DNA of 64,000 bases from Acidimicrobiales bacterium (GTDB taxonomy: Bacteria > Actinomycetota > Acidimicrobiia > Acidimicrobiales > Bog-793): positions 8,507 through 72,506 of the forward strand of contig JBKQLZ010000006.1 in the NCBI GenBank assembly GCA_052146895.1, written 5' to 3'. The notes under the pieces were generated by a model that worked only from the letters and a program-made list of their open reading frames with translations, ran no database searches and had not been told where the DNA came from. Shown piece by piece: positions 6,925 to 61,834 of the stretch. Every line of letters starts with the position of its first letter. Positions within the stretch are counted from its first letter, which is position 1. The translations under genes and the position numbers were made by a program.

Positions 6925-6997
6925 GCCCCCATCGTCTAGCGGCCTAGGACGCTGCCCTTTCAAGGCGGTAACACGGGTTCGAATCCCGTTGGGGGTG
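6925..6997 (+). tRNA. tRNA-Glu (anticodon TTC)
   Basis: Cloverleaf folded by hand: acceptor GCCCCCA/TGGGGGT, anticodon loop CTTTCAA, T-arm ACGGG-TTCGAAT-CCCGT. CCA is not encoded. Confidence 0.9.
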
Positions 6998-7018
6998 CTC
7001 ACCGTTGGGGGTGCTCAC
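6986..7018. repeat. Perfect tandem duplication (2 x 16 bp, ccgttgggggtgctca) of the tRNA-Glu 3' end
   Basis: 6986-7001 and 7002-7017 are identical. The first copy is the T-stem/acceptor 3' half of tRNA-Glu. Confidence 0.9.
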
Positions 7019-32222: not shown

Positions 32223-32297
32223 GGACCTGTGGTGCAGCCTGGAGTGCACGCCGGCCTGTCAAGCCGGAGGTCGCGGGTTCAAATCCCGTCAGGTCCG
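32223..32297 (+). tRNA. tRNA-Asp (anticodon GTC)
   Basis: Acceptor GGACCTG/CAGGTCC, D-stem GTGC/GCAC, anticodon stem CCGGC/GCCGG with loop CTGTCAA, T-arm GCGGG-TTCAAAT-CCCGT. Confidence 0.9.
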
Positions 32298-32368
32298 CCC
32301 ATTCGTCGTCAGGTGCCCAGCTGACGAGCGCCTTTCTCATGACGCGGTACGCTCTCGGGCGACCACTA

Positions 32369-32441
32369 GGTCGGGTAGCTCAGTTGGTAGAGCGCGCGCC
32401 TGAAAAGCGCGAGGTCACCGGATCGATGCCGGTCCCGACCA
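32369..32441 (+). tRNA. tRNA-Phe (anticodon GAA); integration target of the adjacent islet
   Basis: Acceptor GGTCGGG/CCCGACC, D-arm GCTC-AGTTGGTA-GAGC, anticodon loop CTGAAAA, T-arm ACCGG-ATCGATG-CCGGT (unusual A at position 54). Confidence 0.85.
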
Positions 32442-32442
32442 C
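32397..32442. repeat. attL: 46-bp direct repeat (3' half of tRNA-Phe)
   Basis: cgcctgaaaagcgcgaggtcaccggatcgatgccggtcccgaccac is identical to 37703-37748. Confidence 0.9.
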
Positions 32443-47296: not shown

Positions 47297-48523
47297 TCAC
47301 CCGCACCCGACGAGAGGAGCGAGCACGAGGAGCACTGCGAGCGCGGCGACTGCTGCGGGCATCACGACTCGCAGTCCCATGCGGAAGAACACCCCGGCTC
47401 TCACTGGGGCTCCGAGGCGGCGCATCGAGTCGACCCACAGGAGAGTCGAGAGTGAGCCCGTGATGAGCAGGCCGGGGCCGGCGTTGACGCCCAGGAGGAT
47501 TGGCCACAGCTGACACGATGCCCTGCCACCTGCGCCCGCGGCGGAAGGCAGCGCCACGAGCAGCGCTGGCAGGTTGTTCACGACGTTGGCACCGCCCGCG
47601 CTCGCAGCAGCCGCCCGCATCATGGCAAGCGGGCCGGAGCCGCCGAGGAGCGCGCTCAGGTCGACGCCCTCGACTGCGGCCGTGGCCAGCACGCCCAGTC
47701 CGGCGGCCACGAGCGCCGTCTCCCATGGGACGGATCGGAACGGGACGCTCCTCGAGGCGGCAACAAGGATGACGTCTGCACCAAGCGCCACCTCCCAAGC
47801 CCGCACGCCGATCGCAGGGCCCGCCAAGAAACCGGCGAGGACCAACGCGACCACGACCGACCCACCTAGGAGGACGCGACCGTCGCGGGCGGTCTTCCGG
47901 TCAGGCGGGGTCTCTGGTTCCTCGGCAGCCGGCAGGTCGCCCGCCGTTCGGGTCGCCGGCCGGTAGCACGAGTACCCGACTGCGCACGCGACCACAGCGG
48001 GGGCGCCGAGGTGCTCGAACCACTCGAGCGGGCCGATCCCGAACCTGGCGGTCGCGATCAGGTTGGTGAGGTTCGACACGGGCAAGAAGGACGACGCCAG
48101 CAAGGCGAGCACTACCGGTTGGAAGCAGACGAACCGACGAGGGAGCCCGTGGCGCGTCGCGATCCTGAAATAGAGCGGCGTGAGCAGCACGACGGCTGCG
48201 TCCAGATTCAAGACCGCAACCGTCCCCGTGCCTAGGAGCCACAGCCCGGGGATCAGCCAACGGCCGTTCCCGAAGCTATCGGCAAGCTGTTCGAAGTAAC
48301 CGAGGCGGTCGAGCAGCACCGCGAGCGGGATGGCGGTCAGCAAGAAGGCAAGCGGATCGAGGAGCGGGCTCACGGCGTGTCCTGTCTCGTGCCACGAGAC
48401 CAGTCCCGACACAACGGCAATGGCGACGCAGGCGACGGGCGCCGCAAAGGCGGGGATCCGTCTCGGTCTGAGCGTGGCGCCCGCGACTGCGACTAGGAGC
48501 AGAGCCAGCCGGGCGACCGTCAC
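47297..48523 (-). CDS. ArsB/NhaD-superfamily ion transporter permease
   Basis: About 11 TM segments, LNLDAAVVLLTPLY-type motif. GTG 48523 overlaps the stop of the upstream GNAT gene (GTGA). Confidence 0.7.
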   Translation of the reverse strand: MTVARLALLLVAVAGATLRPRRIPAFAAPVACVAIAVVSGLVSWHETGHAVSPLLDPLAFLLTAIPLAVLLDRLGYFEQLADSFGNGRWLIPGLWLLGTGTVAVLNLDAAVVLLTPLYFRIATRHGLPRRFVCFQPVVLALLASSFLPVSNLTNLIATARFGIGPLEWFEHLGAPAVVACAVGYSCYRPATRTAGDLPAAEEPETPPDRKTARDGRVLLGGSVVVALVLAGFLAGPAIGVRAWEVALGADVILVAASRSVPFRSVPWETALVAAGLGVLATAAVEGVDLSALLGGSGPLAMMRAAAASAGGANVVNNLPALLVALPSAAGAGGRASCQLWPILLGVNAGPGLLITGSLSTLLWVDSMRRLGAPVRAGVFFRMGLRVVMPAAVAALAVLLVLAPLVGCG

Positions 48524-48972
48524 GCGCCGTGAGGGCCCGGGAGCCAGCGATAGGTGACCCAGCCATCGACCGGTCGAGCACCGAGAGAGTCGTAAAAGCC
48601 AGCTGCGTCCGTGTTCCAAGTGAGAACGTTCCACTCGACTCGCCCACTCGTCAGCCCCCGGAGCGCGTCGAGCAACGCTCGGCCGTACCCGGCGCCGCGA
48701 TGATCCGGCCGCACGAAGAGATCCTCGAGCCACAGCCCCGACGTACCAAGGAACGTCGAGAAACTCTCGAAGTACAACGCGAACCCCGCCACCTCACCAT
48801 CGTCGGTCTCGGCGAGCAGAACGCTCGGCACTGCGCCGTCCCCGAAGAGTGCCTCCTGCAGCCCCGCTTCTTCCCAGACCACCTCGTGCGCAAGGTGCTC
48901 GTACTCGGCCAGCTCGCGAATCAGGCTCGCGACGACATGGGCGTCGGCGGGCTCTGCTCGGCGTATCGGCAT
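48520..48972 (-). CDS. GNAT-family N-acetyltransferase
   Basis: IRRAEPADA, LEDLFVRPDHRGAGYGRALL, FYDSLGA. Confidence 0.85.
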   Translation of the reverse strand: MPIRRAEPADAHVVASLIRELAEYEHLAHEVVWEEAGLQEALFGDGAVPSVLLAETDDGEVAGFALYFESFSTFLGTSGLWLEDLFVRPDHRGAGYGRALLDALRGLTSGRVEWNVLTWNTDAAGFYDSLGARPVDGWVTYRWLPGPHGA

Positions 48973-49049
48973 GGAGCAAGACTAGGAACAGCGGCGAGAC
49001 TCGCGCTACGCGTTGACTGCTCTGCGGGCGGTTGCTAGACACCCTTGTC

Positions 49050-52000
49050 ATGAAGCTCTCTCGAGTAATAGCCGGTGCCCTACCGCTGTTCGCCATCTTG
49101 CCAGCGAGCGCTGCGCTCGCGGCTTCCGCGAGCACCTACGGGAACCGCCTCGCAGAGATCGCCGCTCGACCGAGCTTGCCTGCGCACACCGTCATGATCG
49201 GGAACGTCCGGACGTCGATGGAGATCTCCGGCGCGCTCGGCCTTCGCTCGCGAGATCAAACGGGCCTCGCCCGCTTCCTAGCCGAGGTGACGGACCGGAC
49301 CTCGCCGGAGTTCCACCAGTACCTGACGAGGAGCGAGTTCGCGAACCGCTTCGGCGCCTCGGAATCAGCTGTCAGCGCAGTGACACGAGTGCTTCGGTCC
49401 GACGGGTTGCACCCGGCCGTGTCGTCGAACAGGATCCTCGTCACCTTCCATGGGGACGCCGCGAACATCGAGAGGGCGTTTCGGACGGGGTTGGCTGATT
49501 TTCGTTTCTCCAATGGGCGCACCGGTTGGGGCACGACGTCAGCGGCTCGCTTGCCTGCGGGGATCGCCCGCAGCGTGTCGGGTGTCGTAGGGCTCGATGA
49601 CCTCGTGCACATGTCGAGCGGCATCGAGAAGGCGCCCCGCGTGGCGCGTGGGGCCGTAAAGGCGTCAGCGCTCCCGAAAGCTTCTCCCGGAGCGCCGTCG
49701 GCGTGCGGCAGCGCCAACGCGCAGGCGGACTACGGCGGCGTGACCGCTGATCAGCTCGCGCACGCTTATGGCGTGGACGGGCTCTACGCGACCGGTGACC
49801 TCGGCGGGGGCCAGACAGTCGACATCTTCGAGCTCGAGCCCTTCTTGATGAGCGACATAGCCGCCTACGACAAGTGCTACTTCGGGACGAGCGAGACCAA
49901 CAGCACCCACGTCTCGGTCACCGAGGTCGACGGGGGCGCCGGTACAGGTCCGGGCTTTGGCGAGGCGGCACTTGACGTCGAGGACGTGTCGACGATCGCG
50001 CCAGACGCCGAGATACACGTGTACGAAGGCCCGAACACGACGTTCGGTTCGCTGGACGCCTACAACGCCATCGCGACCGCGGACAACGCCCGCGTCGTCA
50101 GCACGAGCTGGGGCCTGTGCGAGTCGGCGTTCCAGTCGGGCTCCCCCGGGACTCAGGAAGTGGAGAGCGAGATATTCGCCGAGACCGCGGCGCAGGGTCA
50201 GTCCGTCTTCGCCGCCGCCGGCGACGACGGCTCCGACGACTGTGCCAACCAGGCGCCTACGCCTGTCGCCAACGAGCTCTCGGCAGATGACCCAGGCACC
50301 CAGCCCTACGTCACCTCGGTCGGTGGCACCACCTTCACCGACATCACCGAGCCCCCCACAGAGCAGGTCTGGAACGACGGCAACGACTGGGGCGCAGGTG
50401 GCGGCGGCATCTCCGACACCTGGGCCGAGCCGTCCTGGCAGGCCGAGGCCACAGTGGCTGGGATCGCGAACGGTGCGGGGACCGGTGAGCAGCCGTGCTC
50501 TGACGACCCGAGCGGCGTGGGCACGGCCTACAACCTGGCAGGTGTCGACACGACGTTGCCATCCGGCACCCCGTGCCGGATGGTTCCCGACGTGACGGCG
50601 CTGGCGGACGAGTTCACCGGGATCACGTCGTACTGGGACGGCGAGATGAGCACGGTCGGTGGGACGTCGTCGTCGACGCCCCTGTGGGCTGCGATGACAG
50701 CCGACATGGATGCTTCGTCGTTTTGCGATGGGACGACGTTGGGTTTCGTGAGCCCGTTGCTGTACGACGTCGCTTCTTCCAGCACGTCTGACTACGCGCA
50801 CGCCTTCAACGACATCACTGTCGGCAACAACGACAGCCTCGGTGTGGGCGACGGGACCGACTTCCCGGCTGGGACCGGGTATGACCTCGCCTCAGGGCTG
50901 GGCTCGCCGAAGATCACCAACCCCGACGGTGACCCCGGCTTGGCGCAACAGGCGTGTGCGATGGTGCAGGACTCGAGCAACCCGCCGATCGTCTCTACTG
51001 TCTCCCCCTCCTCAGGGACGAACCAGGGCGGCACGAGCGTGACGATCACAGGCAACAACTTCGGCACAGCAGCTGGTGGCGTCTATGTCGGGACTCAGGC
51101 GGCGACGGTGGTCAGCTGGTCGTCGACCTCGATCTCGATCGTCACGCCGACCTACAACGCCCCACAGGGGACGGTGCTGCCGGCAGGAGGCACCGCACCC
51201 GTGACCGTCGTGACGACAGACCCCGAACGATCGAGCTCACTCAACCCCACGAACAGCGTCTTCCACTATCTCGGTTATGCCGGCGGGACCACGCCGGTGG
51301 TCGACTACGTCGGCCCGACCGCGGGTAACGCCGCTGGTGGGTACGCAGTGGACATCGTCGGCTCAGGCTTCACAGGCGCCACGAGGGTCACCTTCGGCGG
51401 CGTGGAGGCCACGAGCCAGATCGACGTGAACGACAGCAACATCACCGCGACCGTCCCGGCTGAGACCGGGGCAACGGCGTGCGCGTTCCCGAGCAACAGC
51501 TCGGTCTGCCAAGTCGAGGTGCGGGTGACCACTCCTGCCGGTACCTCGGCCGAGGACACGATCCTTCCCTCTTACTCGGGCGCGATCGAATTCGAGCCGG
51601 ACGAGGTCATCTACTACACACCGGGCACTGAGGTCGTCGCTGCTGCGTCCGAGTTCGACTACGCCCCGACTCCCGACGTGACCTCGGTCACACCCAAGTA
51701 CGGTGCCGAAGAGGGTGGATCGACCGAGGACATCCACGGGACGGGATTCAACGTCCTCACGTACTTCTGGACGGATTTCGGGCCGGTCGGTCCGCAGTCG
51801 AGTCAGGACTTCTTCAACCTGTCGATCACGCCGACCGACCTGTTCATCGTCAACAGCGGTGACGAGTTCCTCTCGGGACCGACGACAGAGCCCCTGGCTC
51901 AAGCGGTCACCATCGTCACCGCCGGAGGCCCTTACCTCGTCCCGAGCGACTTGTTCGCCCTGGCGGGACGGCCGACTGTGACAAGCCTTTCCACCCATGT

Positions 52001-52850
52001 CGGGACGACCGAAGGAGGCGGCACCCTCACGCTCGCGGGCCACGGTTTCATGGCAGTCGAAGACGTCGTATTCGTCGACGACAACTCGGGATTCGGAGCG
52101 ACCGAATCGACCGCCTTCCTAACCCAGACCGACACCACGTTGAAGATCGTGCTCCCAGGCAACCTGCCGGGGGCCACGAACTTGGTCGCCTGCACCGAGA
52201 CGGGATGTAGCAGCGAGAACTCGAGCCTGGACTCGTTCGTCTTCGGCTATCCCGGTGCTCCCGTGATCTCGAAGATCTCCCCACCGTCCGGTCCAGCCGC
52301 TGGAAGCGCGTCGCTCAAGGACGGCGTCGAAATCTCCGGCACTTTGCTCGATTCTCCGGTCGCCGTGAAGTTCGGCAACACGGAAGCCACCGTCTTCGAG
52401 AACACGGGCGCCGTACCCGGAGGTGGGAACGCGTACGAGATCCTCGTCGAGGCCCCGCCGGGCAAGGCGGGCACGACGGTGACGGTCGCAGTCGAGACTG
52501 CCGGCGGAGAGGCCACCGGTCACGGGTTCAGCAACACGAAGAGCTACACCTACAAGAAGAGCGCTCCTAGCGCTCCGACGTCGGTGACAGCGAAGGGTGG
52601 GAAGAAGGCGATCAGCTCGTCTTGGACGACGCCTTCATCGAACGGCGGCTCGCCGATCACCGGCTACAAGGTCGAGCTGCTCTTGAAGGGCGACTTCCGC
52701 AAGCCCGCTCAGAAAGTGACGGTCTCGGCGTCCACTCACTCCTACGCCTTCACGGCGGTGGCGCCGGGGAAGTACACGGTCGCCGTGGCTGCCGTGAGCG
52801 CTCTCGGGACCGGCTACTTCGCAAGCTCGGCAGTGGTCGCAGCTACTTGA
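49050..52850 (+). CDS. Secreted sedolisin (peptidase S53) with pro-domain, five IPT/TIG-like repeats and a C-terminal fibronectin type III domain
   Basis: Signal peptide MKLSRVIAGALPLFAILPASAALAASA. S53 motifs GEAALDVEDV, STSWG, GGTSSSTPLWA. Repeats begin PIVSTVSPSSG, PVVDYVGPTAG, PDVTSVTPKYG, PTVTSLSTHVG, PVISKISPPSG. FN3: SAPTSVTAKGG...GGSPITGYKV. Confidence 0.85.
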   Translation: MKLSRVIAGALPLFAILPASAALAASASTYGNRLAEIAARPSLPAHTVMIGNVRTSMEISGALGLRSRDQTGLARFLAEVTDRTSPEFHQYLTRSEFANRFGASESAVSAVTRVLRSDGLHPAVSSNRILVTFHGDAANIERAFRTGLADFRFSNGRTGWGTTSAARLPAGIARSVSGVVGLDDLVHMSSGIEKAPRVARGAVKASALPKASPGAPSACGSANAQADYGGVTADQLAHAYGVDGLYATGDLGGGQTVDIFELEPFLMSDIAAYDKCYFGTSETNSTHVSVTEVDGGAGTGPGFGEAALDVEDVSTIAPDAEIHVYEGPNTTFGSLDAYNAIATADNARVVSTSWGLCESAFQSGSPGTQEVESEIFAETAAQGQSVFAAAGDDGSDDCANQAPTPVANELSADDPGTQPYVTSVGGTTFTDITEPPTEQVWNDGNDWGAGGGGISDTWAEPSWQAEATVAGIANGAGTGEQPCSDDPSGVGTAYNLAGVDTTLPSGTPCRMVPDVTALADEFTGITSYWDGEMSTVGGTSSSTPLWAAMTADMDASSFCDGTTLGFVSPLLYDVASSSTSDYAHAFNDITVGNNDSLGVGDGTDFPAGTGYDLASGLGSPKITNPDGDPGLAQQACAMVQDSSNPPIVSTVSPSSGTNQGGTSVTITGNNFGTAAGGVYVGTQAATVVSWSSTSISIVTPTYNAPQGTVLPAGGTAPVTVVTTDPERSSSLNPTNSVFHYLGYAGGTTPVVDYVGPTAGNAAGGYAVDIVGSGFTGATRVTFGGVEATSQIDVNDSNITATVPAETGATACAFPSNSSVCQVEVRVTTPAGTSAEDTILPSYSGAIEFEPDEVIYYTPGTEVVAAASEFDYAPTPDVTSVTPKYGAEEGGSTEDIHGTGFNVLTYFWTDFGPVGPQSSQDFFNLSITPTDLFIVNSGDEFLSGPTTEPLAQAVTIVTAGGPYLVPSDLFALAGRPTVTSLSTHVGTTEGGGTLTLAGHGFMAVEDVVFVDDNSGFGATESTAFLTQTDTTLKIVLPGNLPGATNLVACTETGCSSENSSLDSFVFGYPGAPVISKISPPSGPAAGSASLKDGVEISGTLLDSPVAVKFGNTEATVFENTGAVPGGGNAYEILVEAPPGKAGTTVTVAVETAGGEATGHGFSNTKSYTYKKSAPSAPTSVTAKGGKKAISSSWTTPSSNGGSPITGYKVELLLKGDFRKPAQKVTVSASTHSYAFTAVAPGKYTVAVAAVSALGTGYFASSAVVAAT

Positions 52851-52864
52851 AGCGGTCGCGCTCT

Positions 52865-52883
52865 GCCCGGCTCAACACCGGGC
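52865..52883 (+). terminator. Short GC hairpin after the S53 gene
   Basis: gcccgg-ctcaaca-ccgggc lies 15 nt after the stop. Weak (6-bp stem, no T-tract). Confidence 0.3.
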
Positions 52884-53073
52884 TCTGGCGCGGCGAGGTA
52901 CGCTTGCGCCCGTGGTTGACCGACTGACTCAGCGATTTGCATGCCTCCCGGCCCATCCTTGGCTGCCGGGGGACGCTTCGACGCAGTAAGTCGGCGACTC
53001 CGCTCAGGCGAGCTCTCGGGCCGGGAGGGTTTCCCCCACCCAAGTCCAGCCCACCTGAGAGCAAGGAGTCACC

Positions 53074-54255
53074 ATGTCTGTTTCACCGTCTGTTTCACCG
53101 TCATACCTCACGCCTGACCAGCTGCGGCGTGACCAGGCAATTCGCGACCTGTCAGATCCGGCCCATGGCGCCCACGCGCTCCAGCTGCTCGTCGAGAGCG
53201 CCGTGGAGCGGCTCGTGAACGCCTGGAACTGCCAAGTCCGCTGGTGCCGCGGGCCCCGGGTGGTGCCCGTGGCGGACAACTACGACCGGCTGGGTTTCGC
53301 AGCTGACGCGATAAGTCGCGAGACCCGTTACACGCGCTACGTCGACCCGGGTCACGTGCTGCGTAGCCACTCGAGTGCGATGGTCCCTCGAGCGCTGCGC
53401 GAGCTCGCCGCCTCGCCCTTCGACGACGTCCTGCTCACCTGCCCTGGCATCGTCTTCCGCCGGGACGCCATCGGCTGGCAGCACACCGGCACGCCGCAGC
53501 AGCTCGACCTCTGGCGGATCACCCGGGAGCCGATGGGGGACGGTGACATGGACGACATGATCTCGTCTCTTCTCCAAGTGCTCGCTCCGGGCCGCGTTCA
53601 TCGAGAGGAGGCACGGGTGCATCCGTACACCCTCAACGGTCGCCAGATCGACGTCTTGTGGGACGACCGCTGGGTGGAGGTGTGGGAATGCGGAATTGCA
53701 CACCCAGCCGTCCTCGAAGCCGCCGGCCTCGCGGGTTGGCACGGGCTCGCCCTCGGGATGGGCCTCGATCGGCTCCTAATGCTGACCAAGGGCATTCCCG
53801 ACATCCGGCTCCTCCGCTCGACCGACCCGCGAGTGAGCCGTCAGATGCTCGATCTCTCCCCGTACCGACCGGTGTCCTCGATGCCGCCGGTCAAGCGTGA
53901 CCTGTCCATCGCCGTCGCTGCGGACGAGGACGAGGAGACCCTTGGTGACCGAGTCCGCGACGCGCTCGGCGACGATGCCTCCAGCGTCGAAGAGGTAGCT
54001 GTCCTCTCAGCCACGCCGTACTGCGATCTGGCTCAGCCGGCACGCGCGCGCCTCGGGGCGCTCCCCGGGCAGAAGAACGTTCTTGTCCGGGTGGTGCTGC
54101 GTGCTCTGACCGATACGCTCACCGACGGTCGGGCAAACGAACTGAGAGACCGTGTCTACGCGGCGCTACATCAAGGCGCGGCTTTCCAGTGGGCCGTCAC
54201 CCACGCAGCGACCGAGCCTCACTCAGCCGGCCGGGAACCTAGCCTTGAGCTGTGA
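53074..54255 (+). CDS. PheS-like class II aminoacyl-tRNA-synthetase core fused to an FDX-ACB (ferredoxin-fold anticodon-binding) domain; paralogue of unknown function
   Basis: Motif 2-like CPGIVFRRDAIGWQHTGTPQQLDLW and motif 3-like GLALGMGLDRLLMLTKGIPDIRLLRS. The C-terminus (PVSSMPPVKRDLSIAV...VLVRVVLRAL) resembles an FDX-ACB fold. No PheS N-terminal coiled coil and no pheT nearby. Strong RBS aaggag. Confidence 0.75.
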   Translation: MSVSPSVSPSYLTPDQLRRDQAIRDLSDPAHGAHALQLLVESAVERLVNAWNCQVRWCRGPRVVPVADNYDRLGFAADAISRETRYTRYVDPGHVLRSHSSAMVPRALRELAASPFDDVLLTCPGIVFRRDAIGWQHTGTPQQLDLWRITREPMGDGDMDDMISSLLQVLAPGRVHREEARVHPYTLNGRQIDVLWDDRWVEVWECGIAHPAVLEAAGLAGWHGLALGMGLDRLLMLTKGIPDIRLLRSTDPRVSRQMLDLSPYRPVSSMPPVKRDLSIAVAADEDEETLGDRVRDALGDDASSVEEVAVLSATPYCDLAQPARARLGALPGQKNVLVRVVLRALTDTLTDGRANELRDRVYAALHQGAAFQWAVTHAATEPHSAGREPSLEL

Positions 54256-54827
54256 CACCTCCGAACGAAGTGATCCTCGACTCTCTACAAAGACGCCTAC
54301 GTGCGATGCACTCGCTCTGGTACGAGGCAGTCGACACAATGGACGCCGAGCAGGTCAACCATGTGGAGCGTGAGCCGGTCCTCCCGATCGCGTTCTCGCT
54401 GTTCCACCTCGCGCAGATCGAGGACGGCTCGGTCACGATGCTCGGCGGGCCGCCCCTCGTCTACGACCAAGCCTGGGCGGATCGGATGGGCCTCGCCATC
54501 GCCGATCACGGCAAGCACCGCACCGTCGAGGAGATGGTGGGCCAGCGGATCGGCAACTACGAAGGCTTCCGCGAGTACCAGCGGCTCGTCTTCGACAAGA
54601 CGGAGGCCTGGTTGAGCTCGGTCGACCCCGAGTCGCTGACCGACGTCGTTGTCGCTCGCCCCTTCCCGCCGCAGATCGCGTCCACGTTCAGCGCGCGGGT
54701 TGCGGGGGACGAAGGGATCACCCGCCTCGATGGAATCGAATGCTGGATCTATCAGCACGGCCTGCGCCACATGGGAGAGATCGAGCATGCCCGAGCGCTC
54801 GTCGGATTGCAGGGCATGACGTCCTGA
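54252..54827 (+). CDS. DinB-family (DinB_2/YfiT-like) protein
   Basis: Four-helix-bundle pattern with His residues (LWYEAV...NHVE...FHLAQIEDG...YQHGLRHMGEIEH). GTG 54252 overlaps the upstream stop (GTGA). Confidence 0.7.
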   Translation: MTPPNEVILDSLQRRLRAMHSLWYEAVDTMDAEQVNHVEREPVLPIAFSLFHLAQIEDGSVTMLGGPPLVYDQAWADRMGLAIADHGKHRTVEEMVGQRIGNYEGFREYQRLVFDKTEAWLSSVDPESLTDVVVARPFPPQIASTFSARVAGDEGITRLDGIECWIYQHGLRHMGEIEHARALVGLQGMTS

Positions 54828-54870: not shown

Positions 54871-55278
54871 ATGGCGAACAGGCGCAGGCGAAGCACGTCG
54901 GGCCGCCCGGCGGTGATCGCGCTCCTCGTCTGTATCGGCTTGGTTATCGGGCTCGCTGCGGCATTTGCAGCCAACAAGTCCCAATCGAGCGCTCCGCCAT
55001 CTCCCGTCACCGCGAAAGCGGTCGTCGTGGCAACCCTCAAGCCGGACGTATCGAGCGCGGAGGCGACCGCGATGTCCAACCATTACCTGACTTTTGCGGG
55101 CGTCGCCGCTGTGCAGGCAGTGGGCACTTCCTCCGAGGAGTTCTTCATGGCCCAAACTGCGACGACCTTGCAGATCGATGCCGTCGAGTCCGCTCTGCAA
55201 TTCGATCCGTCGGTCGCTCACGTGAGCCTCGAAGGCCCGAGGACATGCGAGAAGACCTGCCTCCGAAGTAGCCGATGA
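54871..55278 (+). CDS. Membrane-anchored hypothetical protein (FtsX-extracellular-domain-like alpha/beta module)
   Basis: Arg-rich N-terminus, one TM (VIALLVCIGLVIGLAAAFAA), then VVVATLKPDVSSAEATAMSNHYLTFAGVAAVQAV. Confidence 0.45.
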   Translation: MANRRRRSTSGRPAVIALLVCIGLVIGLAAAFAANKSQSSAPPSPVTAKAVVVATLKPDVSSAEATAMSNHYLTFAGVAAVQAVGTSSEEFFMAQTATTLQIDAVESALQFDPSVAHVSLEGPRTCEKTCLRSSR

Positions 55279-55751
55279 CGACCGAGAGGATCCGGTCTCG
55301 GCCACTCCAGGTACTCGCGGCTATCTGGATCGCCCTGTCCCTCATCCCGATAGGGATCTGTGTCAACGCCATGATCGGCGCGACGGCGGCGGTGACGCTC
55401 GTAGCGCTCTCAGTGCTGGCTGTGAACGTCATCATCGGGATCGTTCTCGTCCGGCTCGCCCGCACTGGAATCGATCTCGACTCGAGAGGCGTCGTCGTGA
55501 GGAACCTGATGCAGACCGAGCGCGTGCGCTGGGCGGAGATCTCGGGCGTCGGGCGCGACAGGGTCGAGGGCTTGCCAGAGGCGGCTCGTTCCGACCAGCC
55601 CGTCCGGATCCACCGGTATGCCGGGTCGGACGTCGTCGTGGGTGGTCTCCTCGTCACGAAGTCGGAGAAGAGCCGACGCGCCATCGAGGCGCTCGTGGTC
55701 TACCTGAACCAGCGACTCGAAGCGTCTCGCTCCGCCCTCGGGCCGACGTGA
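55275..55751 (+). CDS. Membrane protein with bacterial PH-like domain
   Basis: Two TM segments followed by GIDLDSRGVVVRNLMQTERVRWAEISGV. ATGA overlap with the upstream gene. Confidence 0.5.
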   Translation: MTTERIRSRPLQVLAAIWIALSLIPIGICVNAMIGATAAVTLVALSVLAVNVIIGIVLVRLARTGIDLDSRGVVVRNLMQTERVRWAEISGVGRDRVEGLPEAARSDQPVRIHRYAGSDVVVGGLLVTKSEKSRRAIEALVVYLNQRLEASRSALGPT

Positions 55752-55755
55752 GCCA

Positions 55756-56577
55756 TTAGGTGATCGCAGCCTCGTCGGGGCACGCCGTCGTCGACGAAGC
55801 GCTCGTGGTAGTCGTCGTCGTATCCGCGTTCGGCAGATAGATGGTGGTGCGCCAGGTGGAGATCTGGTTGCCCGAGTACCCGGCCGTGCGGGGCCCCGTC
55901 TGGAACCCGACAGAGATGTTGACGCTGTCGATGTCGAACAAGGCGCAGGCAGGCACCGTGCCGTTGTCACTACCGCTGGCTCCGAGTTGGTTCCCGAGCG
56001 AGTCGAAGTACTCGAACGAGTAGGTGTTCGTACTCGTCACGTTTGTTGGAGCGATCGAGTCTGTCGCCTCGATCGTGGAAGATTTACCGGACGGATTGGT
56101 CACGACGACGGCGAACACCCACGGATTGTGCCCCGTTGGAGGCGTGCCGCAAGAGGGGACTTTGCTGACGAGCGAGCCGAAGCAGGCCGTGAGCGTATCT
56201 GTCTCCGCTGCACCGTACGTGCCGGGGTAGGTGGTGCCGGCAATGGTTCCCGTGTTGTCGTCGATGCCCGAGTACGTGGTCATCGTGAAAGACGTTGCGC
56301 CTGCTGCCGTCAGACCTACGGCCGCGTGGAGGAAGGGCGTCACGGCTTCGGACGCGATCTGTTCCTGCTGAAGCGAGTACTCCGTCCCGAGCACCGAGGA
56401 CGACGACTTCTCGAGCAGGACAACCGCAGCTGCGCTGAGAGCCATGATGATCGAGATCACGAGGAGCGTGACGAGCATCTCAGTCAGCGAGAAGCCGCTG
56501 TCGTCGCCTACTGCGCGCTTGCGGGTGGCTGCCAGCGCGATCCGAAACGGAGCTCGGACGGTGCCTTGACGATGCAT
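55756..56577 (-). CDS. Type IV pilin-like protein (prepilin N-terminal cleavage/methylation domain), 273 aa
   Basis: Class III signal: basic leader, G|FSLTEMLVTLLVISIIMAL with Glu at +5. Ser/Thr/Gly-rich extracellular part. RBS gaggcgggag before ATG 56577. Confidence 0.75.
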   Translation of the reverse strand: MHRQGTVRAPFRIALAATRKRAVGDDSGFSLTEMLVTLLVISIIMALSAAAVVLLEKSSSSVLGTEYSLQQEQIASEAVTPFLHAAVGLTAAGATSFTMTTYSGIDDNTGTIAGTTYPGTYGAAETDTLTACFGSLVSKVPSCGTPPTGHNPWVFAVVVTNPSGKSSTIEATDSIAPTNVTSTNTYSFEYFDSLGNQLGASGSDNGTVPACALFDIDSVNISVGFQTGPRTAGYSGNQISTWRTTIYLPNADTTTTTTSASSTTACPDEAAIT

Positions 56578-56588
56578 GCTCCCGCCTC

Positions 56589-59066
56589 TCAGCTTGCGTT
56601 CGAGCACTTAGGTGTCGTGCTCGCCGACAGGTTTACGCCACCGCAGTTGACCCAGCCTGCTGGGAACCAGTTGTCTGCGGACGCCGTGACGGCATCTGGT
56701 GGTGCCAGATAAGCGAGGCGAGTGTCATAAGTGAACTGTTTTGTATATCCAGTGACACCACTGTTGGCGAAAGGCCCTCGATACTCGGCTACGTCGGAAC
56801 CGTTGAGGTACATACCACCCAACTGAGCCCCCACGTTGTAATTCTGGATCCCGAACGAGCCGTTGAGCGCAATTAACAGTGCGTCTACGACAGCCCCTGT
56901 ACCAACCGTTCCGGTGTCACACGTCGGCGTAACATCGGCCATGGTGTCGGTTGCGGTCGTGCCGTTGTTCGCACACTGGGAGTCGTTCGTACAGGTCTCG
57001 CTCGTGCCGGAGCCTGAACAGGTGCCAGCCTGCACGGGGTGCGAGAACAGAATGTCGCCGTTGGCGTACAGCCCGAGCAGGTCGGGCGTGGTCTCGCTCG
57101 CGCATGCTGCAGGCAGCCCGTTGAGCGGGCTCTGAAGCGTCCCGCCGGTGTCAGCGCAGCTGTATGTCAGGTCCCGGGTGATGTAGATGTTGTTGTCCGC
57201 ACCGATTGTCAGCTCGCCGTTGAGCTCTCCCTCCACGAACAGTGTCCCGCCAGTGCAATCCGAACTGTCCGGCAGCGCTGTGGGCTGCTCCGGGTTCAAG
57301 AAGCATGTCGTGCCTGCTCCGGTATTGCCGTCGGTCGGGGAGACAGACGAGGCGGAGTTGAGCGTGTCCAGTGTCGTCGGGCTCCAGTAGTTCGGGTCGG
57401 TAGTGCTCGATGGGACATTCTGCACGTAGACGACTCCGTCGGTGGGCATGGGAATGTCCGTGATCAACGGGTTCGTCGGTGAGAACGTACCGTTGCCGCC
57501 ACAGTGGGTCCCCGCGCCGGAGTAGTCGGTCTTCTTGGAGAGGGGGCTCCAGACGTCCATGTATTCGGCGCCTGCCTTATACACGAGCTCGATCATCGTC
57601 GGTCCGGTGTAGAGGCACCCGAACGTGGGGGTCGTGGCGCTGTTCACACCGTCAGCCCAGCCCTCCAACGCGTCATCGAACTGTGGAAGTACTTCGTTCT
57701 GGTCGAGCTGCACAGGGCCGTGCGCGAGCGCGGGTACTCCCGCGCCCGAGCCGGTGCAGTTGATCTGGTCGATCGTGAACCCCGCGGGCACCCACTCTCC
57801 CGCCTCGGCTCCGGTTCCCTTCTCGCTTCCAGGCCACTCGTACTTGAAAGCGATGTCGTTGGGCGTCGAAGTCAGGAGCGAGTACGGCGACCCGTTGAAC
57901 GCCGGGTCTCCGCCCGCGTCGCACATGTGGAGCTCGTCCTTGCTGAAAACGGGCCCGGAAAAGCTCTCGCCACCGATGAAGTCGTAAGGGGTGGCGCACG
58001 GAGAGGCGGGAATCGTCAAGGTCTCGCTCTCACCCGTTGCGGGTGTGAAGGTGTACGTCAAGGCAGCTTGCGTGAAGCCCGCGGACTCGGTCGACGGGTT
58101 GCCGGTTCCCCCGGAGAGCTTGTTGGCGGCTGGAGGAATCCCGTAATACGGGCCGTAGTACGGGTACTGGTACGAGAAGTCCGTCTGCCCGGCGATGGCG
58201 GCCGATGGCGACTGACTGCCGAGAGAGTCGATGAAGTTGTTCTCCTGATAGCCCTCGTAGCCGCACAGCGCCGTATTGAGATAGACGTTGTCCACCGTCA
58301 CCGGCACATCCGCGTCGCTCGTGTAGGTGTAGTTGATGAGCACTTGCGATTCTGGAGACGAGCTCGTCGTAGTGACGCCGTTGTCGGTGAGCGACTCGCT
58401 CACGTTGGGATCGGCGATCGCTGTCGAGCTAGAGGTGGTGGCGGGGTAGCTCGGATCGAGCACCTCGGTGTCGGAGTAATACGCGTTCTGCAGGTAGGTC
58501 GAGTACTTCTTGAAGGCGATCACTGCCGATTCGAAAATGTAGTGTTTCGCGATCCCGGCGCGCCCGGTGATCGTCGCCAGCACCTCGTTCGGGAACGTGT
58601 CGGCAGCCGCGGTGCTCCCGAGGAAGCTTGAGTTCGCCTGAACGTGGAATGCCTCGCACGGGGTGGTGCATTGCTGCCCGGCCGAACCTTGGACACAGAT
58701 CTGCTCCCACCCGTTACCCGCCGCATCGGCACAGAGTCCCCCGGAGATCGTGTTGGTGCCCATGGAGGGGTTGGCGGGGTCGACCGGGTCGGTCGTGCCG
58801 TACGTGTAGTAGGTGGGGTCGTGGTTCAGGTCGTTGCGGTAGTTCTGGACGCCCGCCTCGAGAGCCGCGTATGCCGCGTGCTCGGAACTGGCGACGCTCA
58901 CGAAGGGCAGCTCCTGAGTGACCGATGCGACTAGGCCGGCACCAAGGGAAGCGAGCAAGAACACGACAACCAGTACGAGCAGGAGAGCCTGGCCTCCCTC
59001 GCCCCGGTCACGGATGACCGCGTGCCGAACTCGCTTAAAGGCCTTAACTGTGATCAAGCGACTCAT
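56589..59066 (-). CDS. Very large (about 825 aa) pilus-associated protein with PilX-N/TadG-like hydrophobic N-terminus lacking Glu+5
   Basis: RDRGEGGQALLLVLVVVFLLASLGAGL N-terminus, then an 800-aa T/S/G/N/Y-rich, Cys-containing extracellular region. Sits between two prepilin genes. RBS gagggag before ATG 59066. Confidence 0.65.
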   Translation of the reverse strand: MSRLITVKAFKRVRHAVIRDRGEGGQALLLVLVVVFLLASLGAGLVASVTQELPFVSVASSEHAAYAALEAGVQNYRNDLNHDPTYYTYGTTDPVDPANPSMGTNTISGGLCADAAGNGWEQICVQGSAGQQCTTPCEAFHVQANSSFLGSTAAADTFPNEVLATITGRAGIAKHYIFESAVIAFKKYSTYLQNAYYSDTEVLDPSYPATTSSSTAIADPNVSESLTDNGVTTTSSSPESQVLINYTYTSDADVPVTVDNVYLNTALCGYEGYQENNFIDSLGSQSPSAAIAGQTDFSYQYPYYGPYYGIPPAANKLSGGTGNPSTESAGFTQAALTYTFTPATGESETLTIPASPCATPYDFIGGESFSGPVFSKDELHMCDAGGDPAFNGSPYSLLTSTPNDIAFKYEWPGSEKGTGAEAGEWVPAGFTIDQINCTGSGAGVPALAHGPVQLDQNEVLPQFDDALEGWADGVNSATTPTFGCLYTGPTMIELVYKAGAEYMDVWSPLSKKTDYSGAGTHCGGNGTFSPTNPLITDIPMPTDGVVYVQNVPSSTTDPNYWSPTTLDTLNSASSVSPTDGNTGAGTTCFLNPEQPTALPDSSDCTGGTLFVEGELNGELTIGADNNIYITRDLTYSCADTGGTLQSPLNGLPAACASETTPDLLGLYANGDILFSHPVQAGTCSGSGTSETCTNDSQCANNGTTATDTMADVTPTCDTGTVGTGAVVDALLIALNGSFGIQNYNVGAQLGGMYLNGSDVAEYRGPFANSGVTGYTKQFTYDTRLAYLAPPDAVTASADNWFPAGWVNCGGVNLSASTTPKCSNAS

Positions 59067-59091
59067 CTTCTGCTCCCTCGGGCAGGTCCCA

Positions 59092-60717
59092 CTAGGTAAC
59101 CGTGACACTGGCGGCTCCGGTGGTCCACGTCCCTACGCTCGAGGCGCAGTTGGTGATCGGAGCATCGGACTGGGGTATCTCCGAACTCGAGTAACAGACT
59201 CCGAATGGCGTGACCCATATGTACTGGGCCGCACCGCTGAGGGTCGCGGTGCCGACCGGAGACAGTGCGTACTCACCGAGAGGCAGGCCGACGTTGAAGG
59301 CCACTGGCGACGCCGACTTCGTACACCCGGTCGGATCGGTATAGGCGGCAGACGAGCCGTCCACCTCTGTGAACGTGAGGCCACTCATCACATGAGTGAT
59401 GGCAGAACAGGTGACGGTGATCTGGGCGTAGTACAGCTGAATCGTCAACGTTGGCTCGGTCGTGTTGGCAGATGATTGCGTCGACAGCGGGATCGGCGGC
59501 GTTACCGACGTTGGTTGCGTGAATGAGCCGGTGTAGTAGTACGCCACCGGAGTGGTAGCGGACGAGAGCGCCAGAGGGTTGGATTCGTTCTCGTCGCCGG
59601 CATACACCGGTGAGTAACCGTCCGAATAGGGATAGAGATAGAGATCCCCTCCGGCGGACGTCGAGTACGTTGCCGCCGCGTCGCCGAGCGGGCACGTGGC
59701 ATTCACGGAGTTGCACTGGAGATGTTCGTTCTCAACGCCGACGCGCACGTACGGTGGTTCCCAAACCGGTGATTTTGCGGCGCCCGGGCTCGCTCCACCG
59801 CTCGGGTATCGATACGTGGCGAACGAGACCGGAACGGTCGCGGCATCTGCGAGATAGAAGGGGTTGACAACGGTGACGCTGCCGGCGGTGACTGTGATTC
59901 CTGTCTGGGTCGGGAGGCCCGGTGCGCCTGCCTCGCCGCCGTTCTCGTCGAAGTCGACAATGGCAGGGCTGGTGCTCGTGCACTGACCGGCCACGGCACC
60001 GGGGGAGGAGCAGTAGGCCACGGTGACTTGGTAACTCCAGCCGGCGGCGGCGTCGAGATTCTGAAACACAGCGCAACCAAGAGCATTGGTGTCCTCGAGC
60101 TCCGAGATCGTCTCCCCGGTTGGGACGGAGGGCTGAGCTGAAGTCTCGGTCCAAGTGCCGGTTGCCTGGAACCAGACGTTGTCAACAGTGTCGAGGGTCG
60201 TGTTCAGGTTGTCGACGGGGACCGCGATCTCACCACCGTTCAGCGTCAGGTTCCCAGAACCTTGTGCCGCCGGCGCGAGCTCGGTCGTGAGCGACACCGG
60301 GCCGCCCGAGACAGCGGTGTTCTGCCCCGCTCCGCCGCCCTCGCCGTGCCAGTAAACCTTGGCCGTCACAAAGTAGATCTCTTGGCTCTCGCCAGAACCA
60401 GCAGGCTCCAAGCAAGGCGACACGCCTGTCACGGAGTTGTTGATGGTCACGGTGAGTGCTGACGTGAAGACTGTCTGCCCAATCGTGACGCGGCCGTTCA
60501 CGGTAGCGCTCGTGTTGGGGTTGAACGACTGGTTCTGTGCCAGCAACTCCTCGTTCTCGAGCACCTGAGTCGCGACGTCGTCGGCTTCAGTCTGGAGGTG
60601 GCTGTAGCTCGCGGTCCGGTTGGTGTTGATGAGAATGAGCGCGGTCGGCAGCGAGGTGATGGTGAGAAGAACGACGGCCACAATGACCTCGACGAGGCTG
60701 AAGCCGACGTCCGACAT
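59092..60717 (-). CDS. Type IV pilin-like protein, unusually large (541 aa)
   Basis: Short leader MSDVG|FSLVEVIVAVVLLTITSL with Glu+5. Long Cys-containing extracellular region. Confidence 0.75.
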   Translation of the reverse strand: MSDVGFSLVEVIVAVVLLTITSLPTALILINTNRTASYSHLQTEADDVATQVLENEELLAQNQSFNPNTSATVNGRVTIGQTVFTSALTVTINNSVTGVSPCLEPAGSGESQEIYFVTAKVYWHGEGGGAGQNTAVSGGPVSLTTELAPAAQGSGNLTLNGGEIAVPVDNLNTTLDTVDNVWFQATGTWTETSAQPSVPTGETISELEDTNALGCAVFQNLDAAAGWSYQVTVAYCSSPGAVAGQCTSTSPAIVDFDENGGEAGAPGLPTQTGITVTAGSVTVVNPFYLADAATVPVSFATYRYPSGGASPGAAKSPVWEPPYVRVGVENEHLQCNSVNATCPLGDAAATYSTSAGGDLYLYPYSDGYSPVYAGDENESNPLALSSATTPVAYYYTGSFTQPTSVTPPIPLSTQSSANTTEPTLTIQLYYAQITVTCSAITHVMSGLTFTEVDGSSAAYTDPTGCTKSASPVAFNVGLPLGEYALSPVGTATLSGAAQYIWVTPFGVCYSSSEIPQSDAPITNCASSVGTWTTGAASVTVT

Positions 60718-60941
60718 CTCCCGCACTCGTAGGCGTCGCAAAGTCACCTCAGCTATACGGTGCAGCACAAGAAACGGTCGTTGCACAGTCACTCATAGTA
60801 GTACTACGAACACGGCACGCGCGAGTCAGCGTAATCCGATAACACGAGACTACATAAGAACACACCAGACGCCCTCGCCTCAACACCTCGGCTACGACGC
60901 GAGCTTAGGGCCCTCGGGCGCGAGGTGATAGGACAGGCGAC

Positions 60942-61742
60942 TTGAGGACTCCGGTCGTCCACGAGTTCGTAATCGTCATGAGTGCGCTGTTCGGTCTCGT
61001 CATCGGATCGTTCCTCTCCGTGGTCACCTCGCGAGTGCCGCGCGGCGAGTCGATCGTCCACCCCAATTCCCATTGCCCGAAGTGCGGGAGCGAGATCCAG
61101 CCTTACGACAACATCCCTCTGTTGTCTTACGCCGTCCTCGGTGGGCGGTGCCGCTCATGTTCGGTCCACATCCCGTGGCGCTACCCGCTGCTCGAGGCGA
61201 CCACGGGCGCCTGCTTCGCGATGATCGCCTGGCGAGTCGGTTCAGCTTGGACCATCCCGCCCTTTTGCGTACTGGCAGCCGGCCTGATCGCGGTGTCGGT
61301 CATCGACATCGACCACATGAGGGTGCCGTCGGCTGTGCTCTTCGTCACCGGCGGAATCGCCGCACCCCTTCTTCTCGTCGCGTCGGTGGAGACTCGAACG
61401 ATCGGACACCTTCTATATGGGTTGCTGGCCGGTGTCGCGGCGTTCGCGCTGATGTTCGGCATCCGCGAGGCCTACCGGTCGGGACTCGGTTACGGCGACG
61501 TGAAGCTCGTCGCGCTCGATTCCTTCTTTCTCGGTTCGCTCGACACGCGGGGCGCAGGTCTTGCGATCGCGGGCGTCGCTCTGTTGCTAGGCGTCATCCT
61601 TGCCGGGGCCTTCTCGCTCGTGCTCGTCTCGAAGGGCACCGCGAGCGGAAAGACGAGACTCCCTTTCGCGCCGTTCCTTTCGGCGGGCGCCCTCACAGCA
61701 GTGTGCTTCGGGCCTGCAATAGTCAGGGTCTGGATCGGATGA
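60942..61742 (+). CDS. pilD: Prepilin peptidase (A24 family, PilD-like)
   Basis: N-terminal Zn-ribbon CPKCGSEI...CRSC, catalytic Asp motifs VIDIDHMRVP and GLGYGDVKL, 6-8 TM segments. Start may be ATG 60978. Confidence 0.9.
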   Translation: MRTPVVHEFVIVMSALFGLVIGSFLSVVTSRVPRGESIVHPNSHCPKCGSEIQPYDNIPLLSYAVLGGRCRSCSVHIPWRYPLLEATTGACFAMIAWRVGSAWTIPPFCVLAAGLIAVSVIDIDHMRVPSAVLFVTGGIAAPLLLVASVETRTIGHLLYGLLAGVAAFALMFGIREAYRSGLGYGDVKLVALDSFFLGSLDTRGAGLAIAGVALLLGVILAGAFSLVLVSKGTASGKTRLPFAPFLSAGALTAVCFGPAIVRVWIG

Positions 61743-61834
61743 GCGCCGCCCGATGGCGGACTCCGACGCTGTCATATGTACTGCTACCGTCAGCTCATGA
61801 CCCAGGCTGAGCGCACAGCCTTCCGACGCGCCCG

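Follow-up and report, generated by a model that had tools for sequence, protein, structure and literature searches.

The srmL locus and its family

We analysed a 64,000-nucleotide stretch of DNA from an Acidimicrobiales bacterium (contig JBKQLZ010000006.1, positions 8,507 to 72,506; referred to here as the window), which carries srmL, a gene for a 393-amino-acid protein related to PheS, the alpha chain of bacterial phenylalanyl-tRNA synthetase (PheRS). An initial annotation made from the sequence had pointed to SrmL as the name of a family of this kind, and the name proved right. The protein matches the NCBIfam model NF051887, 'PheS-related mystery ligase SrmL', with 496.7 bits (cutoff 300, E = 3.4e-149), and the match covers model positions 1-349 of 349, on residues 23-368. 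We consider its membership of the SrmL family virtually certain. The protein reaches neither the cutoff of the pheS model (TIGR00468, 84.1 vs 237.45 bits) nor that of pheS_mito (TIGR00469, 106.8 vs 258.35 bits), and it scores 51 bits against a cutoff of 350 with the archaeal-type alpha PheRS model. In Pfam, tRNA-synt_2d is matched with 100.5 bits and FDX-ACB with 26.6 bits, the latter under its gathering score of 31.1.

The window protein is 100% identical to MGO9557649.1 at NCBI, a 'hypothetical protein' of an Acidimicrobiales metagenome-assembled genome (MAG). UniRef gives the SrmL name to a relative, and JGI labels relatives 'phenylalanyl-tRNA synthetase alpha chain'. SrmL is already catalogued and named by NCBI, its function being unexplained, and the window gene is an ordinary member that shares with the NF051887 family the full-length match, the length class, the two domains and the signature residues outlined below. 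It differs by Gln142, by a duplicated SVSP in its N-terminal tail and by a unique C-terminal tail of 25 residues. The window locus itself adds little beyond SrmL membership. Its features are as follows, where L101 denotes the locus of a 78%-identical relative, whose backbone is collinear with the window and whose SrmL shares 79% identity:

53074 to 54255, plus strand: srmL, coding for the 393-residue PheS-related 'mystery ligase' (ATG start; list of open reading frames (ORFs), NF051887)
52895 to 53073, plus strand: upstream region travelling with srmL (blastn collinearity with L101)
53076 to 53102, plus strand: 12-bp tandem duplication giving SVSPSVSP in the N-terminal tail (Tandem Repeats Finder)
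53140 to 53859, plus strand: class IIc catalytic module, residues 23-262 (Pfam tRNA-synt_2d, split-domain NCBIfam scan, mapping onto Mycobacterium tuberculosis PheS)
53446 to 53514, plus strand: motif 2 (conservation tables)
53755 to 53814, plus strand: motif 3 (conservation tables)
53860 to 54177, plus strand: FDX-ACB domain, resembling PheT B8, residues 263-368 (Pfam, NCBIfam, profile match, structure model)
54178 to 54255, plus strand: lineage-specific C-terminal tail, residues 369-393, plus the stop codon (L101 comparison, model confidence)

Both motif strings quoted in the initial annotation are found in the translation, motif 2 (GIVFRRDAIGWQHTGTPQQLDLW) as residues 125-147 and motif 3 (GMGLDRLLMLTKGIPDIRLL) as residues 228-247. 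A Shine-Dalgarno sequence rated as good, AAGGAG, lies at 53063-53068. Collinearity with L101 (window 52895-54176 and L101 7830-9115, 75.6% identity in blastn) starts 179 nt 5' of the srmL ATG; no Rfam family matches the interval 52895-53073, and consensus scans for a promoter or terminator around srmL found none. The tandem duplication, which had been noticed at the outset, was confirmed with a period of 12, 2.2 copies and a 100% match. The resulting protein start, MSVSPSVSPS, is also present in the SrmL of a sister MAG. Residues 1-10 form a non-conserved tail of low predicted local distance difference test (pLDDT) score, and the NF051887 match starts only at residue 23. At the other end, residues 369-393 lie beyond the family model and have pLDDT values of 30-60.

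Domain architecture and active site of SrmL

We obtained a structure model of SrmL with AlphaFold2. A first model from 43 close homologues, with a pLDDT of 74.9 and two segments (62-103 and 128-138) below 50, was replaced by a second one calculated from a 56-sequence alignment, which includes members down to ~30% identity. The second model has a pLDDT of 94.5 and a predicted TM score (pTM) of 0.90, with the FDX-ACB domain above 90 in pLDDT. Its best Foldseek match in the PDB is the closed state of human mitochondrial PheRS (3CMQ; TM 0.74/0.72, root mean square deviation 4.2 Å, 418 columns, 21% identity), and the superposition takes in both SrmL domains. The open, tRNA-bound form (3TUP) is a weaker match, with a TM score of 0.57, and bacterial PheS alpha chains align only across the catalytic core, over ~230-260 columns. 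Since the alignment with M. tuberculosis PheS starts only at PheS residue ~104, the N-terminal coiled coil is absent from SrmL. SrmL is thus modelled as a PheS catalytic module joined to a PheT-B8-type domain in a single chain, without coiled coil or editing domain. The model and the match to 3CMQ bear out the architecture proposed in the initial annotation, including the C-terminal FDX-ACB-like domain, for which the Pfam score is sub-threshold.

This is the chimera of human mitochondrial PheRS (FARS2; 3CMQ, 3TUP), likewise a single chain without editing domain, with which SrmL shares only 21-22% identity. According to PMC3275996, only mitochondrial PheRS combines the module with a B8 domain, and no other monomeric synthetase with a class II catalytic module is known. 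We considered a special kinship of SrmL with the mitochondrial enzyme and found it unsupported by the scores. The catalytic half alone scores 87.9 bits with pheS_mito and 85.7 bits with pheS in a split-domain NCBIfam scan, and the C-terminal domain alone scores 20.2 bits with pheT_bact and 9.9 bits with pheS_mito. In the reverse direction, an SrmL profile gives 150.7 bits on Acinetobacter baumannii PheS, from the core alone, and 157.6 bits on mitochondrial PheRS, from both domains; its C-terminal part matches residues 691-787 of Pseudomonas aeruginosa PheT. The core is hence equally near to gammaproteobacterial PheS, and the C-terminal domain is nearer to bacterial PheT. As neither part favours the mitochondrial enzyme, the domain fusion in SrmL may be independent of that in mitochondrial PheRS. 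The same profile finds SepRS and PylRS weakly (38.8 and 33.9 bits), both being far more distant than PheS.

We mapped the active site onto M. tuberculosis PheS by HMMER alignment to 7daw_A, with ligand contacts taken from PMC8136816, and counted residues in 56 diverse SrmL members down to ~30% identity; a 73-sequence set agrees with the counts. The core is homologous to the class IIc core of bacterial PheS (M. tuberculosis 7DAW, A. baumannii 6P8T), and the LR(S/T)(H/Q)(S/T)S motif and motifs 2 and 3 are recognisable. Degenerate motifs, which would have spoken against the initial annotation, were not seen: Arg129 in motif 2 (Arg201 in M. tuberculosis PheS) and Arg233 in motif 3 (Arg312) are kept in 56/56 members, as is the pocket glycine Gly207 (Gly284). 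The contacts to ATP and to the alpha-amino and carboxylate groups are largely retained, with Asp131 (Asp203, adenine N6) found in 47, His137 (His209, adenine sandwich) in 51, Gln143 (Gln215, carboxylate and amino group) in 51 and Glu202 (Glu279, Mg/ribose) in 46 of the 56 sequences. Position 99, which corresponds to the amino group ligand His175, is His in 31/56 and Gln in 22/56. Invariance of the motif arginines and retention of Asp131, His137, Gln143 and Glu202 at identities of 30-70% point to purifying selection on the active site, and SrmL looks like an active adenylate-forming enzyme.

As judged from the alignment, the side-chain pocket is different from that of bacterial or mitochondrial PheRS. 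Two ring contacts are kept, Thr186 (M. tuberculosis Thr258, Escherichia coli T251) in 47/56 and Ala226 (Ala305, E. coli A294) in 48/56. The recognition of the ring by two phenylalanines (Phe255 and Phe257 in M. tuberculosis, Phe258 and Phe260 in Thermus thermophilus) is missing in the window protein, in which His183 and Tyr185 take their places; these replacements are found in 49/56 and 54/56 members, respectively. Gly282 is replaced by Glu205 (53/56), Glu217 by Asp145 (55/56) and Leu219 by Trp147 (55/56), and the Val286 position is variable, being Ala, Ile or Val. Mitochondrial PheRS, in contrast, keeps the bacterial Phe/Phe ring pocket as well as the phenylalanine that stacks on adenine, where SrmL has His/Tyr/Glu and mostly Pro. 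All family signature residues (Asp145, Trp147, His183, Tyr185, Glu205 and an RDxS strand in the C-terminal domain) are present in the window protein. Its position 142 (53497-53499), equivalent to His214 of M. tuberculosis PheS and adjoining the adenine pocket, is Gln, as in its two closest relatives (P0271 and P0002), and is His in 52/56 members.

Human cytosolic PheRS, which is Phe-specific, has Asn410, Tyr412 and Asn434 at the first three ring positions and a compensating Phe438 at the position of Val286. SrmL resembles it at the former and is without the latter. Phenylalanine is therefore a possible substrate, and a differently tuned aromatic specificity would be the more natural reading of the pocket.

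In the C-terminal domain, Arg275-Asp276-Leu277-Ser278 (Arg in 49/56, Asp in 45/56 and Ser in 53/56) corresponds to the M. tuberculosis PheT strand with Asp745 and Ser747, two residues that contact A35-A37. From the conservation of this RDLS strand, an RNA acceptor for SrmL appears plausible.

Distribution and genomic neighbours

We found ~234 clusters of SrmL in an exhaustive search of representatives (clusters at 50% identity, E ≤ 1e-30), with full-length members down to ~30% identity and low-GC organisms among them. The family cutoff is passed by six diverse representatives, two plasmid copies and one phage copy. Hosts include Acidimicrobiia, Streptosporangiaceae, Micrococcaceae, Propionibacteriales, a myxobacterium and an Azotobacter plasmid. 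Recent spread is seen for one allele, which forms a cluster at ≥90% identity under the label 'MULTISPECIES [Bacteria]' and occurs in records of Brevibacterium, Glutamicibacter, Tessaracoccus, Leucobacter and Streptomyces. It rides a conserved mobile island, which is indexed in 147 collection blocks and is represented here by L090 (the Glutamicibacter plasmid pGnB68) and L093-L100. The island consists of an insertion sequence (IS) element or integrase, an exporter of the major facilitator superfamily (MFS), a small ORF, SrmL, convergent DUF1772 and NmrA genes, an AraC regulator, further genes and then an MFS/TetR pair; the exporter upstream of SrmL is a Cmx/CmrA-type chloramphenicol efflux gene. 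SrmL copies on the Labilithrix luteola chromosome (L070) and on a plasmid of the gammaproteobacterium Azotobacter chroococcum (L091) are 49-54% identical to the window protein, which indicates, at the level of sequence comparison, cross-phylum transfer. The plasmid copy is flanked by IS630, IS3, HNH and VapC/Phd genes. A tblastn search of GenBank phages yielded a full-length SrmL on the 634,780-bp 'uncultured phage' LR745206.1 (L092, 12001-13080), which scores 423 bits with NF051887 and is 37% identical to the window protein; no tRNA gene is found within 12 kb on either side of it. Two single-protein scans of viral contigs found no SrmL.

This distribution over plasmids, a mobile island, a phage and different phyla excludes a vertically inherited housekeeping role. 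The scores with the PheS and pheS_mito models, which stay well short of the cutoffs, agree with this, and the possibility raised in the initial annotation, that the gene encodes the housekeeping PheRS, can be dismissed. The absence of an adjacent pheT, also noted there, holds throughout the 64-kb window, which contains neither pheT nor a second PheS-like ORF, and no pheT stands next to any SrmL family member examined. All-against-all clustering of the flanking ORFs at 79 loci revealed no conserved neighbour gene, the commonest cluster being present in 14/79; the neighbourhoods of five distant members are short contigs or contain genes without a Pfam match. The solitary horizontal distribution implies that SrmL acts by itself, on substrates that are available universally.

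Directly downstream of srmL in the window lie three genes on the same strand:

54252 to 54827, plus strand: DinB_2-superfamily gene, 191 residues from GTG 54252 (alternative starts GTG 54270 and ATG 54306)
54871 to 55278, plus strand: ORF3, 135 residues, N-terminal hydrophobic anchor (ORF list)
55275 to 55751, plus strand: ORF4, 158 residues, two hydrophobic segments (ORF list; ATGA overlap with the ORF3 stop)

The initial annotation had described the neighbour as DinB_2-like, translationally coupled to srmL and followed by two small membrane proteins. Its family stands: the protein scores 26.4 bits with Pfam DinB_2 (gathering score 24.8) and 36.8 bits, against a cutoff of 170, with MST_Rv0443 (NF047843), and by sequence it belongs to the DinB superfamily. 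Two small ORFs with hydrophobic N-terminal segments do follow on the same strand to 55751. ORF3 has no family match above threshold in NCBIfam or Pfam; ORF4 has a weak bacterial PH-like region, with bPH_6 and DUF6585 matches below their gathering scores. PADLOC finds no defence-system match for any of the four genes. The GTGA overlap of the srmL stop with the DinB-like ORF is present at 54252-54255, with GTG 54252 as a candidate start and GTG 54270 as an alternative. Deposited gene calls on three contigs place the start at ATG 54306 (173 residues). The 14 residues ahead of this ATG are conserved in two relatives, with conservative changes (window EVILDSLQRRLRA vs ELILDSLRRRMKA), and one relative's gene is called from MTTDELILDSL, with an AAAGGAG site. 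This conservation at the protein level supports a start at GTG 54252 or GTG 54270, 0-15 nt from the SrmL stop.

The functional pairing of SrmL with the DinB-like protein, which the initial annotation had suggested, does not extend to the family. Among 80 genomic SrmL loci, a homologue of the window DinB-like protein occurs in one, 5 kb downstream of SrmL, and at the 58 other loci where the downstream gene could be called, SrmL never adjoins a DinB-superfamily gene of the same orientation. The sole other DinB-superfamily neighbour is a convergent MST-family gene at L003, separated by a 243-nt gap. The immediate downstream genes at the 58 loci instead belong to Glyoxalase_4 (8), MobA-like (6), FdhD (3), DSBA (2) and other families, and the plasmid, island and phage copies of SrmL are without a DinB gene. 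In L101, the DinB-like gene, ORF3 and ORF4 (86, 68 and 65% identity) form a conserved trio with its own ribosome-binding site, which follows a sulfatase gene; ~5 kb with four genes (two sulfatases, a Polyketide_cyc2 gene and a 213-residue ORF) lie between SrmL and this trio. Homology to L101 in blastn breaks off at window position 54176 and resumes at 54265, and the intervening 88 nt (54177-54264), which have no L101 homology, encode only the SrmL C-terminal tail, which makes up most of them, and the beginning of the DinB-like reading frame. On this sequence comparison, the two genes meet at an indel junction particular to this lineage and do not form a conserved partnership. Co-transcription of the two genes in the window organism is possible, without comparative support as a functional coupling, and the idea of a thiol or small-molecule ligase, as far as it rested on the pairing, falls with it.

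Upstream of srmL, the window differs from L101 by two insertions, one (48987-52894) carrying a gene for a 1272-residue sedolisin-like secreted peptidase (49032-52850; Pro-kumamolisin activation plus TIG) and the other an ArsB/CitMHS-type transporter gene (47308-48531); the region is an indel hot spot. Directly downstream of ORF4, genes on both strands (55756-63724) encode pilin-like (N_methyl) proteins, two large unannotated proteins, a prepilin peptidase (A24) and a Wzy_C-type protein; the group has the appearance of a locus for a type IV pilus or pseudopilus. The Rfam matches in the whole window are three tRNAs: tRNA-Glu(TTC) at 6925-6998, tRNA-Asp(GTC) at 32223-32299 and tRNA-Phe(GAA) at 32369-32442, the last being 20 kb from srmL and unlinked to it.

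Some arrangements recur within parts of the family. Seven loci, all from a single actinomycete MAG clade, have a tRNA-Sec gene (anticodon TCA) 0.2-4 kb beyond SrmL on its downstream side (L008 7988-8081, L012 2575-2668, L013 6710-6803, L015 10124-10219, L017 8242-8335, L060 8977-9070 and L066 8539-8618). In L008 and L017, the two that were checked, it adjoins a gene for a class II synthetase of Asp/Asn/Lys type with 436-457 residues, and L012 also has SelB. Neither the window nor other clades show this arrangement, which may reflect no more than inherited synteny. In other actinobacterial clades, a same-strand ORF of 280 residues recurs directly downstream of SrmL in L028, L032, L037, L039, L042 and L056, with a gap of 10-11 nt (39 nt in L042), and one of 273 residues in L027 and L052; the family counts (MobA-like NTP transferase at 6 loci, FdhD at 3) suggest that these are MobA-like and FdhD genes, related to molybdenum cofactor and formate dehydrogenase. 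Two contigs of the bin MFD05377.bin.2.113 (L016 and L020) each carry SrmL with the same neighbours, as a result of either a duplication or a mixture of strains in the bin.

Candidate functions of SrmL

We propose that SrmL may be a class IIc ligase working autonomously as a monomer, which would activate an aromatic, Phe-like amino acid and transfer it to tRNA; we hold this reading to be about as likely as not. The enzyme would bind ATP and an alpha-amino acid to form an aminoacyl-adenylate, as the sequence-level conservation of the active site suggests. The amino acid would be aromatic and Phe-like, read by a remodelled and more polar pocket (His183, Tyr185, Glu205, Asp145, Trp147), which may discriminate between Phe and its analogues in a manner unlike PheRS or may prefer a polar-substituted aromatic amino acid. 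The C-terminal domain would then swing from the closed to the open position as in mitochondrial PheRS, allowing the aminoacyl group to be passed to the 3' end of a tRNA; transfer to tRNA is proposed because the B8-type domain and the RDLS strand are retained and conserved. An enzyme in no need of a dedicated partner protein could also be carried singly by plasmids, islands and a huge phage, as SrmL is. SepRS and PylRS are precedents for a PheRS-type core that has gained a new amino acid specificity.

Several observations weigh against this proposal. The adenine-stacking Phe213 of M. tuberculosis PheS corresponds to Pro141 in 46/56 SrmL members and to Phe in 4, and the pocket geometry is an alignment-based inference. 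The gate for the tRNA 3' end in PheS (HPAR) is not conserved, with His152 being variable and Asp159 replaced by Tyr or His; basic residues (Arg82, Arg85, Arg88, Arg130) are common near these positions instead. PheT residues Asp778, Phe780 and Arg830, which read G34, have no conserved counterpart in SrmL, which has Ser/x/Thr and a family-specific insertion at this point, where the alignment is uncertain. With neither the gate nor the G34 readers conserved, the assignment of tRNA as acceptor is tentative, and that of tRNA-Phe in particular is not supported. No dedicated tRNA gene is consistently linked to SrmL across the loci examined, unlike PylRS with its adjacent tRNA gene. A literature search found no paper that names SrmL or 'mystery ligase', nor any on the family.

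SrmL could instead be a fully functional alternative monomeric PheRS, serving as a back-up or conferring insensitivity to an inhibitor or analogue in the manner of the mobile IleRS2 and TrpRS2, which we regard as possible and yet rather unlikely. Its architecture is that of an active PheRS, the mitochondrial enzyme (PMC3275996), the ring contacts Ala226 and Thr186 are kept, and the polar/Tyr/polar arrangement at positions 183, 185 and 205 parallels that of human cytosolic PheRS. Horizontal gain of resistant aminoacyl-tRNA synthetase paralogues is well documented (PMC5388404), and these, for example mupirocin-resistant IleRS, are likewise extra, patchy in distribution, found across phyla and carried on plasmids or resistance-type islands, as SrmL is on plasmids, on an island with an efflux gene and on a huge phage. 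Such paralogues, however, score as the canonical enzyme and are clearly orthologous in function, whereas SrmL falls far under both equivalog cutoffs (84 vs 237 and 107 vs 258 bits). In addition, SrmL has Ala, Ile or Val in place of the cytosolic Phe438, nothing in PheRS corresponds to the near-invariant Glu205, Asp145 and Trp147, and the residues for G34 reading and the 3'-end gate are not conserved. Together with the coiled coil, the pheT partner and the Phe ring residues, the HPAR gate is among the features of bacterial PheS that SrmL is without. SrmL is also without a known inhibitor, and no natural PheRS inhibitor is linked to its loci.

The lack of conservation in the 3'-end contacts and G34 readers speaks for a transfer of the adenylate to a non-tRNA acceptor, such as a side chain of a protein or a small molecule, with the FDX-ACB domain acting as a lid or protein-binding module. 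EpmA/PoxA, MshC and AsnA are precedents for such a reaction, the model is closed, with the C-terminal domain over the active site (TM 0.74 for 3CMQ vs 0.57 for 3TUP), and the curators' name 'mystery ligase' makes no claim of tRNA charging. We nonetheless judge this route improbable: the RNA-binding B8-type domain and the RDLS strand are conserved family-wide, no acceptor-protein or biosynthetic gene is a conserved neighbour in the loci examined, and the solitary horizontal spread implies a universally available acceptor. It is very improbable that SrmL is a pseudo-synthetase without catalytic activity whose role is regulatory or structural, comparable to HisZ or to the catalytic-like module of PheT. 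The replacement of the stacking Phe by Pro in most members and a Gln at the Mg-ligand position 191 in 22/56 would fit this, but the motif 2 and 3 arginines are invariant, and Asp131, His137, Gln143 and Glu202 are kept in 46-51/56. Hardly credible, and by comparative genomics largely refuted, is a translationally coupled two-enzyme pathway in which SrmL, as an aminoacyl or small-molecule ligase, would feed the DinB-like protein as a thiol transferase of mycothiol type. The genes touch or overlap in the window, the neighbour has weak similarity to mycothiol transferases and L003 has an MST-family gene beside SrmL; that gene is convergent, however, and the pairing is confined to a junction of indel sequence, with the L101 trio standing separate under its own ribosome-binding site, a homologue at 1/80 loci and no DinB gene at the plasmid, island and phage copies.

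A bolder form of our proposal, which we put forward tentatively and consider rather unlikely, is that SrmL would constitute a fourth functional class IIc lineage beside PheRS, PylRS and SepRS, mobile and partner-free, which either loads tRNA with a polar-substituted aromatic amino acid outside the canonical set or represents a horizontally transferring PheRS that is proof against an analogue or inhibitor. If this is true, a bacterial family with the module-plus-B8 architecture would bear on the origin of mitochondrial PheRS.

What is new here is the residue signature of the family, a confident model resembling mitochondrial PheRS, evidence for horizontal mobility and the accidental nature of the DinB coupling in the window, traced to a local indel. 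SrmL forms a bacterial family of considerable size, with an architecture deemed organelle-only in PMC3275996, and its sharply conserved, non-PheRS signature and its mobility across phyla suggest a distinct, self-contained and selectable activity. The family merits biochemistry, and identifying the substrates of SrmL could bring to light an aminoacylation specificity or a resistance mechanism not seen before, or a hint as to how organellar PheRS arose.

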